The notes: generated by a model from the sequence alone, not told the origin. 4,104 nucleotides of DNA from a virus (IMGVR_UViG_2671180620_000027), one strand, 5' to 3'. Shown: positions 1 through 4,104, counted from the first letter of the stretch. A program made the numbers and translations.

Positions 1-246
1 CCGTGCCCTGGCGTTGCTGGTGGGCACGTTATGCGGCGCGGTCTGTACCAGAGAAAAATCACGCCGGAACTGATAAACAGGCATCACGCAATCATATTCG
101 TAACCTTCACGGCGGTAGGTTACGCGCCGTTCTTCCACGCCCTTAATCATTACCGTGCCGCCGTACTGGTCGCGGTAAATATCACCGCGCGTAAATTTAG
201 GGTGAGTGTTGCCACTGGCAGTTAAGCCAGAATATTTAAGTTTCAT
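1..246 (-). CDS. Hypothetical small protein, 3' end beyond window (82 codons visible, no stop reached); possibly DUF4222-like prophage protein
   Basis: Own reverse-complement translation from ATG at 244-246: MKLKYSGLTASGNTHPKFTRGDIYRDQYGGTVMIKGVEERRVTYRREGYEYDCVMPVYQFRRDFSLVQTAPHNVPTSNARAR, open to position 1. Starts 5 nt after the stop of the upstream ORF (252-254), same strand. Not in the ORF track because no stop lies in the window. Family resemblance is from memory only. Confidence 0.5.
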   Translation of the reverse strand, partial: MKLKYSGLTASGNTHPKFTRGDIYRDQYGGTVMIKGVEERRVTYRREGYEYDCVMPVYQFRRDFSLVQTAPHNVPTSNARAR

Positions 247-251
247 TATTT

Positions 252-485
252 TTATTCTCCGGTGTGCTGTTCGTTATATCTGTCGTGCAATGTCTCTATT
301 TCCTGCAACTCATTTATTACAGACTCAAGAAGCGTTATTAATGATGTAATAATCCGCGTTTTTTTTGCATTACGTTCATTATCGCCAAAGGATTCAAGGC
401 ACATCCGCAATATTTCCATCATGTTTTCACTGTGAGAAAGTGCAAGTGATGCGCGGTCTATTGTTTCAAGATAAATATCACGCAT
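252..485 (-). CDS. Hypothetical protein, 77 aa, AT-rich codon usage
   Basis: Track ORF MRDIYLETIDRASLALSHSENMMEILRMCLESFGDNERNAKKTRIITSLITLLESVINELQEIETLHDRYNEQHTGE. ATG at 483-485 overlaps the stop of the upstream ORF in an ATGCGTGA junction (translational coupling). GAGGA lies about 8 nt upstream of the ATG. No family recognised. Confidence 0.5.
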   Translation of the reverse strand: MRDIYLETIDRASLALSHSENMMEILRMCLESFGDNERNAKKTRIITSLITLLESVINELQEIETLHDRYNEQHTGE

Positions 486-711
486 GGCTTACATCCTCAG
501 GAAATTTTCTTCTGTAACGCGCCTCTGCCACATATTCCGCATAATCGGCGGCGATATTCAGTACATCAAGTCCCGTTGATTTATATTCTCTCGTGGAAAG
601 TAAGAAAAAAGCCGCTCTAATAAGTTCTGGCATTGACGAAAGCGCATCAGCCGCATCATCAGGAACGCCGGAAAATTCTTGTTTCAGGGAATTAAAACGA
701 TCATCACGCAT
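478..711 (-). CDS. Hypothetical acidic protein, 77 aa
   Basis: Track ORF MRDDRFNSLKQEFSGVPDDAADALSSMPELIRAAFFLLSTREYKSTGLDVLNIAADYAEYVAEARYRRKFPEDVSHA. ATG at 709-711 sits 2 nt downstream (minus sense) of a G9 run that may act as a G-rich ribosome-binding site. Its stop overlaps the next ATG. No family recognised. Confidence 0.5.
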   Translation of the reverse strand: MRDDRFNSLKQEFSGVPDDAADALSSMPELIRAAFFLLSTREYKSTGLDVLNIAADYAEYVAEARYRRKFPEDVSHA

Positions 712-926
712 AACCCCCCCCCATTTTCACAATCAGCAACAAGAATATTTTTAGCGTCATTCAGCGACCGCGTTGCGATGTATCGGATACATTCCAGGGC
801 GAACTGTGTCCGGTCTTTCTGTTCTTCTCCCTGCGCAAGCTCTGCAGTGCATTCAATATCGATAAGCGCGTGCATCAGCGTAGTGAGCGCGGCGGCTGCT
901 GCGTCCGGTGTGGTTTTATTGCACAT
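684..926 (-). CDS. Hypothetical protein, 80 aa; C-terminus depends on G9 tract length
   Basis: Internal start of the 94-aa track ORF: ATG at 924-926 preceded by AGGAGG (plus-strand CCTCCT at 933-938) with a 6-nt spacer. Sequence MCNKTTPDAAAAALTTLMHALIDIECTAELAQGEEQKDRTQFALECIRYIATRSLNDAKNILVADCENGGGLCVMIVLIP. The ATG overlaps the stop of the upstream ORF (TAA at 916-918) in ATGTGCAATAA. The 3' end overlaps the next ORF by 28 nt. Confidence 0.5.
   Translation of the reverse strand: MCNKTTPDAAAAALTTLMHALIDIECTAELAQGEEQKDRTQFALECIRYIATRSLNDAKNILVADCENGGGLCVMIVLIP
714..722. repeat. Homopolymeric tract C9 (G9 on the coding minus strand) at a gene junction
   Basis: Direct count: positions 714-722 are nine consecutive C. 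On the minus strand the run is read as GGG GGG GGG (codons 722-714) in the 684-926 ORF and lies immediately upstream of the ATG of the 478-711 ORF. Confidence 0.9.
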
Positions 927-1476
927 GGCACACCTCCTGACGAATACGGGCGGCGAATACAGCAACACAACCGGACGGGCAACGGCTACGCGCTTCGCGT
1001 TCCGTCCAGGCGGTTACGTGGATGATTTGATGTTCTGACGCGCCAAAGATGATAAAGCGCCAGAGAAAGGCGGTTTGAGAATGTACAAGGGTAGGGATAG
1101 TAGCCATGTTGGCAGCCTCCTCAGTGTGGTTAAGATAACCGCCACCGGAAACGCCAATTTCGCTGGTGGCGGACTGTACAGGGTTGGCGTAACCGGACAC
1201 TGAAGAAACCGGCGCGGATTGCTCCGCCCCCGTACAGCCCACCATTGATAAGGTGTGACTATGCGGCACAAAAAAACACGCGGGGCGCGTGTTATGCGCT
1301 TCAGTTTTGCCCAGGACGCCAATCCCGGCACCCGTTTTATGAGGTGCGCGGGAATCATAGCTATTTTCGACACTGGCGATCAACTGGTTTTTTTCTCCGA
1401 TATTCAGGGCCAGAAAACGCCACACAAAGGCCGTTTGTGTGTGTACAAGGTGTGGTATATGATTTACGGCAACCAT
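916..1476 (-). CDS. Hypothetical protein with internal paralogous repeat (186 aa from ATG 1474-1476; alternative 63-aa product from internal ATG 1105-1107)
   Basis: This is the C-terminal part of the 409-aa track ORF. ATG at 1474-1476 is preceded by AGGAG with a 5-nt spacer. An in-frame internal ATG at 1105-1107 is preceded by a strong AGGAGG (1116-1121) with an 8-nt spacer. The motif IPHLVHTQTAFVWRF (1414-1458) recurs as IPTLVHSQTAFLWRF (1054-1098), with synonymous third-position differences in this frame. The true start is uncertain. Confidence 0.45.
   Translation of the reverse strand: MVAVNHIPHLVHTQTAFVWRFLALNIGEKNQLIASVENSYDSRAPHKTGAGIGVLGKTEAHNTRPACFFVPHSHTLSMVGCTGAEQSAPVSSVSGYANPVQSATSEIGVSGGGYLNHTEEAANMATIPTLVHSQTAFLWRFIIFGASEHQIIHVTAWTEREARSRCPSGCVAVFAARIRQEVCHVQ
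1054..1098 (-). repeat. Paralogous repeat copy B (encodes IPTLVHSQTAFLWRF)
   Basis: Codon-by-codon comparison with 1414-1458 on the minus strand: cca/cct, cac/cat, acg/acc and cgt/cgc are synonymous; T/S, V/L and H/T are conservative replacements. Confidence 0.7.
1414..1458 (-). repeat. Paralogous repeat copy A (encodes IPHLVHTQTAFVWRF)
   Basis: See copy B. Similarity continues into the flanking codons and the upstream SD-like GGAG. Confidence 0.7.
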
Positions 1477-1538
1477 AACGGCTCCTAGTTTACGTTGTTG
1501 GTTAGACGCCCCGTATGTGTTCCCAGCACTGCGGGGCG

Positions 1539-1566
1539 TTGATTTTTGTGTAATGGCAAGTACAAT
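1539..1566 (+). promoter_or_regulatory. Candidate rightward promoter for the RHH gene (TTGATT, 16-nt spacer, TACAAT)
   Basis: Hexamers read at 1539-1544 and 1561-1566. The predicted start at about 1573 falls inside operator copy 1. The -35 is weak, so this is tentative. Confidence 0.3.
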
Positions 1567-1610
1567 GGTAATTACCATGTAGGTATAGTAATGAAGGGTA
1601 ATTACCATGT
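1567..1610. promoter_or_regulatory. Two direct copies of GGTAATTACCATGT, each containing the perfect palindrome GGTAATTACC; candidate operator for the RHH protein
   Basis: Copies at 1567-1580 and 1597-1610, 30 bp centre to centre (about three helical turns). Copy 1 extends to the 14-bp palindrome ATGGTAATTACCAT (1565-1578). Copy 2 contains the ATG of the RHH gene (1607-1609). Confidence 0.5.
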
Positions 1611-1613
1611 CAA
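1585..1613 (-). promoter_or_regulatory. Candidate leftward sigma70 promoter for the small-ORF operon (TTGACA, 17-nt spacer, TACTAT)
   Basis: Minus-strand -35 TTGACA is the reverse complement of 1608-1613; -10 TACTAT is the reverse complement of 1585-1590; the spacer is exactly 17 nt. The predicted start near 1578 lies in operator copy 1, and copy 2 covers the spacer and -35. Confidence 0.45.
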
Positions 1614-1780
1614 CACCATTAGAAAAACGTTCGCCTCCATACCAAATGCGATTACCGGAAGACTTCAGAGCGCAGCTAGAAGAAGCAGCTAAGGCCGATG
1701 GCGACACATCTTTAGCCACTTGGATTAAACGCGTTCTCCGCAAAGAATTACAGCAACGCGGCATAGAACCCAAAGGATAA
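1607..1780 (+). CDS. Arc/MetJ/CopG-like ribbon-helix-helix DNA-binding protein, 57 aa; putative repressor of the divergent operon
   Basis: Own translation: MSTPLEKRSPPYQMRLPEDFRAQLEEAAKADGDTSLATWIKRVLRKELQQRGIEPKG, stop TAA at 1778-1780. It shows the beta-strand (YQMRLP), helix, G-x-T/S turn, helix pattern typical of RHH repressors. AAGGG at 1594-1598 is a possible ribosome-binding site. The opposite strand here is Cys/Ser/Arg-rich antisense-looking sequence. Confidence 0.7.
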   Translation: MSTPLEKRSPPYQMRLPEDFRAQLEEAAKADGDTSLATWIKRVLRKELQQRGIEPKG

Positions 1781-1837
1781 AAACTATCAGCGCCGTGGTG
1801 TGAGGTATTACGGCGCATTGCTATGCAGGACAACACA

Positions 1838-2011
1838 ATGACCGATAAAGAATTGACCAAAACATTATCACCGGCACGGAAAAGACGGCGCAGAAAGATA
1901 GAGCATGAATCAGAAAGATTCGCACCATGTGCTTTTGCCCTTGAGCAATTCCTTAAAGAGTACAGGGAAAAGCGCTCATTGCAGGTATGGCAACGAACTG
2001 AACCAGACTGA
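1838..2011 (+). CDS. Possible small basic protein, 57 aa, downstream of the RHH gene
   Basis: Internal start of the 62-aa track ORF: MTDKELTKTLSPARKRRRRKIEHESERFAPCAFALEQFLKEYREKRSLQVWQRTEPD. AGGA lies about 8 nt upstream of the ATG at 1838. It is on the same strand as the RHH gene and upstream of the plus-strand terminator. No family recognised. Confidence 0.3.
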   Translation: MTDKELTKTLSPARKRRRRKIEHESERFAPCAFALEQFLKEYREKRSLQVWQRTEPD

Positions 2012-2106
2012 TTGCATTGCCCACCAGCCTGATAGCGGCTATCATCCCCGTGCTTATGTTTGGGATCACATACACATAAGGCGCAGCGGGTTAATTGTTC
2101 AGAAAG

Positions 2107-2133
2107 GCGGCTCCATATCGGGGCCGCTTTTTT
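2107..2133 (+). terminator. Rho-independent terminator (plus strand) ending the RHH transcription unit, convergent with alpA
   Basis: Stem GCGGCTCC (2107-2114) pairs with GGGGCCGC (2120-2127), 8 bp with one G-U wobble; loop ATATC; followed by TTTTTT (2128-2133). Confidence 0.6.
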
Positions 2134-2159
2134 CGTGTTTGTCATATCTGTGATACCCG

Positions 2160-2366
2160 TTAAGCAGCCGTTCCGCGTGCTTCCTCTTCGCGTTCTTTCT
2201 GCCAGGACAACACATCATCCTCATACCATCCGCGACGGCGTAAACCAACGCGAAAACCCTGCGGAAATTCTCCGGCGTTGATCATGCTTTGCAGCGTGCT
2301 GTCTGCCTTGATGTGGATAATTTTTTTTACTTCCTGGCGAAAGATAATTTTTCTGATTGCTTCCAT
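2160..2366 (-). CDS. alpA: AlpA/Vis-family phage transcriptional regulator, 68 aa
   Basis: Track ORF MEAIRKIIFRQEVKKIIHIKADSTLQSMINAGEFPQGFRVGLRRRGWYEDDVLSWQKEREEEARGTAA. The core ADSTLQSMINAGEFP...GWYEDDVLSW matches the AlpA helix-turn-helix pattern as I recall it. Position next to a P4-type integrase is typical. Confidence 0.8.
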   Translation of the reverse strand: MEAIRKIIFRQEVKKIIHIKADSTLQSMINAGEFPQGFRVGLRRRGWYEDDVLSWQKEREEEARGTAA

Positions 2367-2862: not shown

Positions 2863-4104
2863 CTACACGGCTCGGATACCCCTTTTACCACTGGCGAGGG
2901 TTACGCCCGTCGCCGCGGCCTCGACAAATTCGCCCCACCAGCGCATCAGCACGATGCGTTTTTCTATGTAGTTGCTCCGGTTGTATGCCCGTCTAACTTC
3001 GTTGGTGTCGACGTGGGCAAGTGCCGCCTCTATTACGTCCGGCTCGAATCCTTCCTCGTTCGCTGCTGTGCTGAATATGGCGCGTAATCCATGAGACACC
3101 AGCACGCCAGCGAATCCCATACGCCGCAATGCTGCGTTAGCTGTCTGGCTGTTCATCGGCTGCTGTGGGTCTTTCAGACTTGGGAAAACGTAATTGCGGT
3201 GGTGGCTGATTGGTTTCATGGCCTCCAGCACCGCCATAGCCTGACCGGAAAGCGGGATAACGTGATCCCTGCGCATCTTCATGCGTCCGGCAGGTATCGT
3301 CCATTGCTTCGCGTCCAGGTTGATTTCATCCCACCGCGTTGATGACGCTTCGGCGGGACGGGTTACGGTCAGTAACTGCCATTCAATCAGTAATCTGGTC
3401 TGCCGTTCTGTTGCCGATACTGATAAAGCCTGCATAAGCTCGGGCAGCTGTTCGGGGCGGATTGTTGGCATATGTTTTTTTACAGGTGAGGGAAACGCCT
3501 TACGCACATTCATAGCCGGATTGGCATCAATCAGCCCACTGTTGGCGGCGTAATCCATTACCTCATTAACGCGCTGTAAAACCCGCTTGAGTGTTTCCAG
3601 GTTGCCGCGCTCCTTGATGGGGGTAAGCACTTCAACGAACCTTCGGGCGGTGAGGGTATCTATTGGCGTGTTGCCGATGAACGGGAATACATATTTATCC
3701 AGCGAACGCCAGATGTCTTTAATCGTGTTGGGGGCCAGATTCTGGCTGATTTTCACCTGGTACCATGCCGCCGCCACATTTTCGAACGTGTTCCCTTGTC
3801 TTCGGGCCTCTGTCTCTCTTTTTTGCCTCTCGTGGTCCTGCGGGTCAGTTCCGGCACTGATTAACGTCCTGTACTCGCTACGGCGTTTTCTGGCATCAGC
3901 CAGGGAAACATCTTCAAGCGATCCAAAACTCAGCAATATTCTTTTTTTGTCCGATGGTCGGTAGTAGGAAAATCTCCAGAGTTTTGATCCAGACGGTTTG
4001 ACCAGGAGAAAAAGCCCTCCGCCGTCCTGCAGGGTGTACTCCTTTTGCGCTGGTCTGGCTGCTTTGATCTGCACTGTGGTTAATGGGTGTGTTTTTCTCG
4101 CCAT
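2863..4104 (-). CDS. int: P4-type tyrosine integrase (site-specific recombinase), 413 aa, complete
   Basis: ATG at 4102-4104, TAG at 2863-2865. The N-terminus MARKTHPLTTVQIKAARP...GGGLFLLVKPSGSKLWRFSYY matches the arm-binding domain of IntA/P4-like integrases. The C-terminal half carries recombinase motifs: TVTRPAE (Arg box), SHGLRA (His-x-x-Arg), AHV, and VRRAYNRSNY (catalytic Tyr). Confidence 0.95.
   Translation of the reverse strand: MARKTHPLTTVQIKAARPAQKEYTLQDGGGLFLLVKPSGSKLWRFSYYRPSDKKRILLSFGSLEDVSLADARKRRSEYRTLISAGTDPQDHERQKRETEARRQGNTFENVAAAWYQVKISQNLAPNTIKDIWRSLDKYVFPFIGNTPIDTLTARRFVEVLTPIKERGNLETLKRVLQRVNEVMDYAANSGLIDANPAMNVRKAFPSPVKKHMPTIRPEQLPELMQALSVSATERQTRLLIEWQLLTVTRPAEASSTRWDEINLDAKQWTIPAGRMKMRRDHVIPLSGQAMAVLEAMKPISHHRNYVFPSLKDPQQPMNSQTANAALRRMGFAGVLVSHGLRAIFSTAANEEGFEPDVIEAALAHVDTNEVRRAYNRSNYIEKRIVLMRWWGEFVEAAATGVTLASGKRGIRAV

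Follow-up and report, generated by a model that had tools for sequence, protein, structure and literature searches.

A probable early operon of an EcCICFT073-type chromosomal island in Escherichia coli, with a P4/P1-type RNA immunity module and a ribbon-helix-helix cassette

What is the chain of small coupled genes that runs leftward from a divergent regulatory switch near a phage-type integrase, and what drives it? The question is raised by the viral stretch IMGVR_UViG_2671180620_000027 (the window, meaning here the whole 4,104 nt analyzed), in which a reading made from the sequence alone had described five open reading frames (ORFs) on the minus strand, controlled by a ribbon-helix-helix (RHH) protein, and had suggested accessory, defense or anti-defense cargo of a P4-like satellite. 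Our analysis makes it likely that the region serves a phage-inducible chromosomal island (PICI) of the EcCICFT073 type as its regulatory and early (pre-replication) operon, and that it carries in addition an RNA immunity module of the P4/P1 type. Read leftward, the layout is alpA, a 409-codon ORF with the RHH-orf62 cassette antisense to it, an internal promoter, isrK, C4, an Icd-like gene, ORF2 to ORF4, RgdR/DUF4222 and a helicase. The window matches the chromosome of Escherichia coli O103 strain RM8385 at 100% and those of O26:H11 and other enterohemorrhagic E. coli at ~97.6%, and parts of it are present in ~2200 of 5426 complete E. coli genomes. Related loci are labeled L003 to L014, L004 being that of O157:H7 RIMD 0509939 and L013 that of an O111 genome.

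The five ORFs are present on the minus strand at 1476-916, 926-684, 711-478, 485-252 and 246-<1, with the junctions ATGTGCAATAA between ORF1 and ORF2, ATGCGTGA between ORF3 and ORF4 and a 5-nt gap between ORF4 and ORF5, as the sequence-only reading had placed them; what did not hold is the beginning of the first, whose frame starts at 2145 (open from 2214) and not at 1476. The segment 1476-916, preceded by the Shine-Dalgarno (SD) sequence AGGAG at 1486-1482, is thus the 3' 186 codons of a longer frame, and from its sequence it appears to be not a simple protein gene but an ORF of the P4 eta/kil type laid over isrK and C4 RNA genes. The features within it are as follows.

1383-1354, minus strand: predicted internal promoter TTGATC-18-TATGAT, positional counterpart of P4 PLE, 6 nt upstream of the first base of isrK.
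1347-1271, minus strand: isrK/seqA-like leader RNA (Rfam RF01394, 66 bits against a gathering score of 50), with targets b1 and a1 and a terminal hairpin.
1322-1316, minus strand: target b1, in the isrK hairpin loop; pairs with ACGCCAA.
1305-1299, minus strand: target a1, within isrK; 7 nt of pairing with the C4 loop.
1293-1275 and the following U run, minus strand: intrinsic terminator of isrK, from a terminator scan.
1249-1162, minus strand: antisense RNA of the C4/CI type (Rfam RF01695, full-length match to the 87-position model; 77.6 bits, gathering score 45).
1208-1197, minus strand: C4 specificity loop, UUUCUUCAGUGU.
1157-1151, minus strand: target b2, UUGGCGU, just 3' of C4; complementary to ACGCCAA (1190-1184) of C4.
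1127-1116, minus strand: target a2, ACACUGAGGAGG, which holds the SD of the Icd-like gene; 12/12 with the C4 loop, G-U pairs included.
1107-916, minus strand: Icd/Kil-like gene, 63 aa (NCBIfam NF033153, 57.1 bits against a cutoff of 25; an intact, Icd-like gene in PGAP).

The first real protein gene downstream of the RNA module is this 63-aa Icd-like gene (ATG at 1107): the match to NF033153 (76.1 bits for P4 Kil) is confined to the final 63 codons of the ORF1 frame, and the only intact-gene call of PGAP within ORF1 is 1107-916. The same succession is found in the P4 immunity region (PLL-vis-eta/kil, with the internal PLE, seqA, the cI RNA and seqC), in which an isrK match, a C4 match (the cI RNA, 74.9 bits) and kil all lie inside the eta frame, which overlaps the end of vis. 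In both elements, an AlpA-family gene is closely followed by a long ORF that starts upstream of the internal promoter, encloses that promoter, the isrK-model leader and the C4-model RNA, and contributes the small Icd/Kil-family gene as its 3' end; the C4 3' end is separated from the icd/kil ATG by 55 nt in each, whereas the spacer between isrK and C4 measures 21 nt in the window and 107 nt in P4. The two proteins, P4 Kil and the window Icd-like protein, are related at profile level only. A promoter-like -35/-10 pair occupies a fixed spot upstream of isrK in all eight elements inspected, P4 included, and the c4-a1b1 model of Rfam gives a weak match at 1360-1308.

Evidence for an RNA function comes from the pairing pattern, which was compared in the window, in P4 and in five other distinct elements (two related islands, one e14-like prophage, two P4-like islands). 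In 7/7, the 12-nt C4 loop is complementary both to the isrK site a1 and to the SD site a2 of the downstream gene; the loop sequence varies among the elements, and a1 and a2 change along with it. Pairing of each loop with its own targets extends over 9-12 nt at a2 and 7-9 nt at a1 and is the best or jointly best, while non-cognate combinations pair over shorter lengths, except between the near-identical loops of L007 and L008. In the second pairing, the sequence suggests a hairpin CCGCCACC/GGUGGCGG with b2 in its loop, and the P4 counterpart differs on both sides (GUGAGAA/UUCUCAC). The C4 RNA thus exposes two segments, with one target pair upstream and one downstream, the latter over the next ribosome-binding site (RBS). 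This is the logic of the C4 family (c4-icd-ant in P1, seqA-cI-seqC in P4) as displayed by the pairing pattern, from which we infer an immunity function; by all sequence criteria, the module would work like the P4 immunity region. In the immI region of P1/P7, the C4 antisense RNA reportedly shares a transcript with its targets, one of which is said to cover the icd RBS, and the downstream genes reportedly need icd translation. The window resembles this system (c4 RNA-icd-ant) in its C4-family RNA and in the target over the RBS of an icd-type gene, as seen with the Rfam C4 and c4-a1b1 models, and differs in what follows: an antirepressor on a plasmid prophage in P1/P7, but orphan ORFs, RgdR and a helicase on a satellite island here. 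In Gifsy-1 of Salmonella (IsrK-orf45-anrP), an isrK-family RNA with an intrinsic terminator likewise heads a prophage operon and controls downstream translation, IsrK activating the translation of an antiterminator by acting on the long isoform in trans (PMC4825925), whereas the isrK-like segment of the window looks like a seqA-type decoy or target of the C4 RNA. C4 and isrK matches in Gram-negative PICIs, and the eta/kil/CI logic of P4, have been described before (PMC10111431).

The same stretch could be read as protein-coding, with Ash, either the 186-aa ORF1 product or the whole 409-aa product, being a functional regulatory protein and the RNA matches being incidental. Such a reading draws on a Pfam Phage_ASH match at 3.3e-17, a full-length phrog_29966 match at 6.3e-110, the PHROG labels 'transcriptional regulator/repressor' and a frame kept open in every relative. 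However, the Phage_ASH match (aa 40-133, nt 1359-1078) falls exactly on the RNA module, that is, on the DNA of isrK, C4 and the icd translation start, and that of P4 eta (aa 37-161, nt 8704-8330) likewise falls on the RNA module of P4. The variation, with the C4 loop changing together with a1 and a2, fits RNA pairing; outside the RNA part, the amino-acid sequence of the long ORF is not conserved between alleles, is rich in Cys, Ser and Arg and has no Pfam match, and the long ORF of EcCICFT073 has no Pfam match at all. Moreover, the P4 immunity factor is an RNA according to PMC10111431 (citing Sabbattini 1995 and Forti 1999). We therefore consider a functional Ash protein very improbable.

The RNA module has a patchy distribution. 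Both isrK and C4 are present in the window, L003, L006, L010 and an E. albertii island, and neither was found in EcCICFT073, L004, L005, L011, L013 or L014. The first 24 residues of ORF1 and its RBS are the 5' end of the Icd-like gene in the RNA-less islands L004 and L005 (MVAVNHIPHLVHTQTAFVWRF...), and an imperfect direct repeat of ~50 nt (1457-1408 and 1098-1048), corresponding to the beginning of the Icd-like coding sequence, lies on both sides of the promoter-isrK-C4 cassette of the window. From these sequences, L005 looks like the product of a deletion between the repeats, or the window like an insertion, and the RNA immunity module may therefore be gained and lost by recombination. Separately, L010 carries two tandem C4-family RNA genes (2769-2856 and 3247-3334), each followed by an Icd-like ORF, with a single isrK. 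In L007 (2787-3474) and in L008 and L009 (2617-3860), a short DUF4222 gene lies directly upstream of the isrK-C4 module; these three are an e14-like prophage and P4-like islands carrying AntA/AntB antirepressors, and this co-occurrence links DUF4222 and the C4 module across several unrelated element types. On the plus strand of the window, a promoter-like site at 1109-1136 (TTGGCA-16-TAAGAT) lies opposite the icd-like start and, together with a hairpin at 1506-1539 described below, could yield an antisense RNA of ~400 nt across C4 and isrK.

The longer frame of which ORF1 is the 3' end links the RNA module to alpA.

916-2145, minus strand: 409-codon read-through ORF, open from 2214; ATG at 2145, 14 nt after the alpA stop.
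2160-2366, minus strand: alpA, gene of an AlpA-family helix-turn-helix (HTH) regulator (Pfam Phage_AlpA at 0.0028, below the gathering score; phrog_2790 and phrog_66 at ~2.5e-6; an HTH regulator in PGAP).

This frame passes antisense to orf62, the RHH gene and the promoter region, continues across the two RNA genes, isrK and C4, and has the Icd-like gene as its 3' end; the remaining two minus frames over the same stretch contain 10 and 20 stops. Its openness, in the window as in diverged relatives, far exceeds what chance would give. In the window, synonymous resampling of the RHH and orf62 codons leaves the frame open in 3% of trials and shuffling of the 306 intergenic bases in 0.65%, giving a joint chance of openness of ~0.03 x 0.0065. 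The frame spans 428 codons in L006 and 521 in L010, despite DNA identity of only ~50% in the RHH region, and 433 codons in EcCICFT073, from alpA to the icd stop. In L014 it is split into two overlapping ORFs, and in L004 and L005 the ORF reaches from the alpA stop to a point 26 nt short of the icd ATG. What appears to be conserved in the long frame is its translatability, not its sequence.

Could the long antisense ORF nevertheless be a by-product of the codon bias of the RHH cassette and of annotation, the operon being driven only from the RHH-associated promoter P_L and the internal promoter? The third codon positions of the RHH gene and the long ORF coincide, which favors open shadow frames, when only the cassette genes are resampled with synonymous codons, 3-10% of the trials among the elements still give an open frame, and the long ORF has a terminator hairpin at its start. 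Yet the intergenic parts (306-666 nt) are open too (P 0.0065 to <0.0003), the frame recurs with RHH alleles that are ~50% identical in DNA and even across two tandem cassettes (607 codons in L013), the pieces of the broken frames overlap or end at the 26-nt distance from the icd ATG given above, and the start always lies just after or overlaps the alpA stop. A by-product thus seems unlikely to us. In P4, according to PMC10111431 (citing Forti 1999), eta is coupled to the alpA homologue, and its translation from the late promoter upstream averts termination; by analogy, translation of the long ORF may be inferred to suppress termination here as well. We further propose, tentatively and with more doubt than confidence, that the long frame of 400-600 codons, found even in EcCICFT073, is a selected 'translation conduit' and that the RHH cassette, transcribed head-on to it, is the missing repressor and brake of Gram-negative PICIs; the product of the conduit would be irrelevant, and its ribosomes would protect the transcripts driven by AlpA against Rho and, in islands that have the RNA module, against C4 immunity. 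The EcCI PICI, C4, isrK, Icd-like and RgdR families are known, whereas our literature search found no discussion of a conserved read-through frame antisense to an RHH cassette. In current annotation, PGAP calls this antisense frame a 247-aa hypothetical protein in L004 (7042-7785) and 'Icd-like' and 'ash' pseudogenes in the window (1630-2145 and 1138-1608), with the RHH gene and orf62 left unannotated in these genomes; this looks like a systematic annotation artifact in the island family.

The RHH cassette itself occupies the plus strand opposite the long frame.

1607-1780, plus strand: gene of the RHH protein, 57 aa (phrog_228, Arc-like, 1.5e-6).
1823-2011, plus strand: orf62, the basic partner in the RHH cassette (phrog_21027, 1.6e-15); 100% identical copies in EcCICFT073, L004 and L005.
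1613-1585, minus strand: predicted P_L, TTGACA-17-TACTAT, 10/12.
1539-1566, plus strand: predicted P_R, the RHH promoter, TTGATT-16-TACAAT; a consensus match only.
1565-1578 and 1597-1610: operator-like palindrome in two copies, ATGGTAATTACCAT and GGTAATTACCATGT.
1506-1539: ACGCCCCG/CGGGGCGU, a conserved hairpin that the P_L transcript would carry in its 5' leader; a T-run follows on the plus strand.
2101-2133, plus strand: intrinsic terminator of the RHH-orf62 unit; its U tract on the minus strand is weak, and the hairpin lies inside the read-through ORF.

The RHH protein scores below the profile cutoffs (Pfam Arc, 14.3 bits against a gathering score of 20.4; NCBIfam YlcI_YnfO, 18.7 bits against a cutoff of 30). 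Its sense frame shows pN/pS of 0.23/0.65 against a 68%-identical homologue, and in 4/4 pairs no antisense frame fits purifying selection better than it does; homologues are annotated in L013 and L014. We considered the RHH gene as a mere shadow of the long ORF and rejected this on the basis of the sense-frame purifying selection and of operators that covary with the allele. The P_L layout, with a -35 element TTGAC(A/G), one operator copy in the spacer, a -10 element and a second operator copy, recurs in most of the relatives examined. Across four allele groups, other RHH alleles are accompanied by other repeats at the same two promoter positions (GTGGCTGACACC in L005, GTGTTNAACAC in L006, L010 and L014, and GTGGGCCACACC in EcCICFT073). 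This allele-operator covariation supports an RHH-operated P_L, and since P_R overlaps P_L, occupancy of the two promoters should be mutually exclusive. The proposal of a leftward, tightly coupled operon with an RHH-controlled promoter is supported by the conserved promoter layout, the covariation and the selection on the RHH sense frame. The RHH-controlled promoter appears, however, to be one of three inputs to the operon; the other two, the internal PLE-like promoter with its RNA immunity and the alpA-linked read-through ORF, were missed in the sequence-only reading. The hairpin at 1506-1539 is present with other stem sequences in L005, L006, L010 and EcCICFT073, and with the T-run it would terminate rightward transcripts antisense to the operon. 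In L013 (1799-3043) and L014 (1925-3050), two tandem RHH-plus-partner cassettes, one of the YlcI/YnfO type and one of the window type, lie between alpA and icd.

To which kind of element does this operon belong? In RM8385, the window is the right, integrase-proximal half of an island of ~8.3 kb that adjoins tRNA-Pro and yejM and has the order tRNA-Pro, int, a small ORF, the HTH gene (alpA), the window block, a RepA-family helicase, three small ORFs, terS and the major capsid gene. The island lies at an att site and, in the RM8385 annotation, has int and alpA as one end, a replication gene in the middle, terS and a capsid gene; this matches the gene layout of Gram-negative PICIs (PMC6092414), and no tail or lysis genes are annotated in it. 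From its sequence, the island appears to be a Gram-negative PICI of the EcCICFT073 type, within the EcCI family (Fillol-Salom 2018). The genes of the block stand in the same order in EcCICFT073, with protein identities of 100% for ORF2, 90% for ORF3, 78% for ORF4 and 93% for DUF4222. EcCICFT073 shares int, alpA, an antisense cassette of an RHH (YlcI/YnfO-type) and an orf62-like gene, the Icd-like gene, ORF2-4, DUF4222 and a replication gene; it differs in having no isrK/C4, one extra small ORF, another RHH allele and operator, a primase in place of the RepA-type helicase and another integration site. No paper discussing its RHH cassette was found in our literature search.

The P4-like satellite identity, in contrast, was rejected: compared with the P4 map, the P4 core genes psu, delta, sid and alpha (primase) are not annotated in the RM8385 island, nor are epsilon and orf151, and the island shares with P4 only the immunity module, the int type and alpA. 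A further difference from P4 is that the divergent RHH-orf62 cassette, with operators and promoters of its own, is nested antisense in the long ORF. Int, AlpA and Pri have been described as all that islands of the EcCICFT073 lineage have in common with P4, and no repressor is known for them; AlpA is the activator of PICIs (PMC6092414).

The remaining ORFs of the chain lead from the RNA module to the replication gene.

684-926, minus strand: ORF2, 80 aa here (phrog_5146, 2.5e-12; N-terminal half of phrog_2512).
478-711, minus strand: ORF3, 77 aa (C-terminal half of phrog_2512, 1.8e-49); its start overlaps the ORF2 region and its stop the ORF4 start (ATGCGTGA).
252-485, minus strand: ORF4, 77 aa (phrog_2196, 1.1e-30).
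1-246, minus strand: ORF5, RgdR/DUF4222, the 5' 246 of 300 nt (Pfam PF13973, 9.8e-25, 86.3 bits against a gathering score of 27).

ORF2 to ORF5 match PHROG or Pfam families at E-values of 2.5e-12 to 1.8e-49 and are real genes. ORF2 carries one additional G, nine (the C-run at 714-722) against eight in L003 and L005. In these G8 relatives, its product has 73 aa, and its stop, the TGA of ATGCGTGA, overlaps the ORF3 start. The slip to G9 in the window only lengthens ORF2 and is the source of its 28-nt overlap with ORF3 and of the tail LCVMIVLIP. The same variant in the O111 genome indicates that G9 is inherited and not a read error; the run is seen in at least three assemblies and marks a slippage-prone tract that alters the coupling of ORF2 and ORF3. 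PGAP flags 478-926 as frameshifted, and since G7 or G10 would fuse the two ORFs, both this flag and the 154-aa phrog_2512 family can be accounted for. A single broken 154-aa gene, as in PGAP, was rejected, given the G8 run and the two coupled 73-aa genes of L003 and L005, and the two coupled 73-aa genes of EcCICFT073.

The sequence-only reading had recognized none of the five products with confidence. For ORF2 to ORF4 this stands, as they have no functional match, whereas ORF1 resolves into isrK/C4 and an Icd-like gene and ORF5 into RgdR/DUF4222. The profile and structure searches it had recommended returned family matches in Pfam, PHROG and NCBIfam; PADLOC gave 0 families at E<=0.1 for nine small proteins, ORF2-4 included. 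ORF3 has 122 homologues, from E. coli or Shigella where named, and ORF4 has 431, from E. coli where named among the 120 matches listed, and both searches returned solely 'hypothetical protein', with no functional lead. The AlphaFold models, a small helical protein for ORF3 (pLDDT 81) and a two-helix hairpin for ORF4 (pLDDT 92.8), retrieved only generic helical hairpins or bundles from the PDB in Foldseek, with no fold match at E<=1e-3. ORF2-4 thus look like small orphan proteins, confined among named matches to E. coli and Shigella. By their position after icd/kil, comparable to P1 ant and P4 epsilon, they are most likely helper-interaction or regulatory factors, which is offered as a lead only.

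ORF5 contains the R20-G-D motif (...KFTRGDIY..., R at residue 20) and is 81% identical to the rgdR annotated by PGAP in L004 and 93% identical to the DUF4222 protein of EcCICFT073. It extends beyond the window, and 4 nt at its stop are shared with the start of the RepA-family helicase gene, so the operon continues into the replication genes. The RgdR/DUF4222 gene precedes the replication gene in all E. coli PICIs analyzed (PMC6092414), and it lies directly upstream of it in the window island too. RgdR (ECs1581) of O-island 51/CP-933C carries the RGD motif at residues 20-22, activates LEE1 and represses motility (PMC3378721); ORF5 resembles it in the DUF4222 domain, the R20-G-D motif and the position immediately upstream of a replication gene. 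The LEE1 and motility phenotype is that of ECs1581, to which ORF5 is likened by sequence and position only. A contig scan with DUF4222 as the single query protein gave two loci, in Shigella flexneri and E. albertii, because such a query reaches close relatives only.

These gene identities bear directly on whether the chain could be five ordinary genes forming a cargo operon for accessory, defense or anti-defense functions, switched only by the RHH protein and inserted in an integrase-proximal hotspot. The ORFs and their coupled junctions do exist, ORF3 and ORF4 are small helical orphans, islands differ in which and how many small ORFs (from one in E. albertii to five in L005) stand between icd and DUF4222, with mosaic alleles, and the RHH/operator architecture is conserved, all of which would suit such an operon. 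But the proteins have no PADLOC matches, ORF1 consists largely of RNA genes and the Icd-like gene, ORF5 is RgdR and is coupled to the helicase, and the block lies between the regulatory and replication modules, as it also does in the model PICI EcCICFT073, while the immunity hotspots of PICIs are at the 5' or 3' ends of the elements or downstream of pri (PMC11364771). We consider cargo highly unlikely.

Two further features lie upstream of alpA. Two tandem 20-nt repeats at 2433-2472 (AAACAGTTCCCACCGTTTTT and AAACGGTATACACCGTTTTT) lie between the alpA start and a minus-strand terminator (2526-2503) that closes the int-orf83 unit, and they are candidate sites of AlpA autoregulation. A small ORF at 2534-2785 (231 nt, 2534-2764, in PGAP) lies between int and alpA and is 65-100% conserved in islands of the same integrase type; searches of Pfam, NCBIfam, PHROGs and PADLOC gave no family for it.

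Several observations weigh against an early operon governed by RNA immunity. EcCICFT073, L004, L005, L013 and L014 keep the remaining genes without isrK/C4, and the operon can therefore run without the RNA module, which is thus optional. The window Icd-like protein gives no BLASTP alignment with P4 Kil, their kinship appearing only through the NCBIfam profile, and the roles of ORF2-4 are unsupported by homology (PHROG, PADLOC) or by a fold match (the ORF3 and ORF4 models). The terminator hairpin at 2133-2101, at the start of the long ORF, might stop alpA transcripts. Finally, transcription, RNA processing and termination are read from sequence alone, all promoters being consensus matches.

By analogy with the P4 and P1 precedents, the operon might work as follows. 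In the quiescent island, the internal promoter would produce isrK and C4, and C4 would pair via its two loops with b2 and a2, masking the SD of the Icd-like gene. The untranslated transcript would then terminate, leaving the downstream genes and the helicase off, while the RHH protein on its two operators would keep P_L shut. Upon induction, a transcript from P_L and/or from the AlpA-activated alpA promoter would be translated continuously through the long ORF, and the ribosomes would override the isrK terminator, the C4 pairing and Rho, allowing expression of the operon up to the replication genes.

For annotation, these results mean that the Phage_ASH 'family' and the PGAP 'ash' and 'Icd-like pseudogene' calls at this locus are translations of the RNA module and the read-through frame. 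As a lead for defense discovery the locus is poor, and it is largely ordinary. It does connect a PICI of the EcCICFT073 lineage with RNA immunity of the P4 type, it offers two candidates, a C4-type RNA and an RHH cassette, for the negative control that PICIs have been missing, and it suggests a possible route by which AlpA-driven transcription may reach the replication genes. If the long frame were indeed a translation conduit, the frame and the RHH cassette would together constitute a bistable switch based on transcriptional interference.

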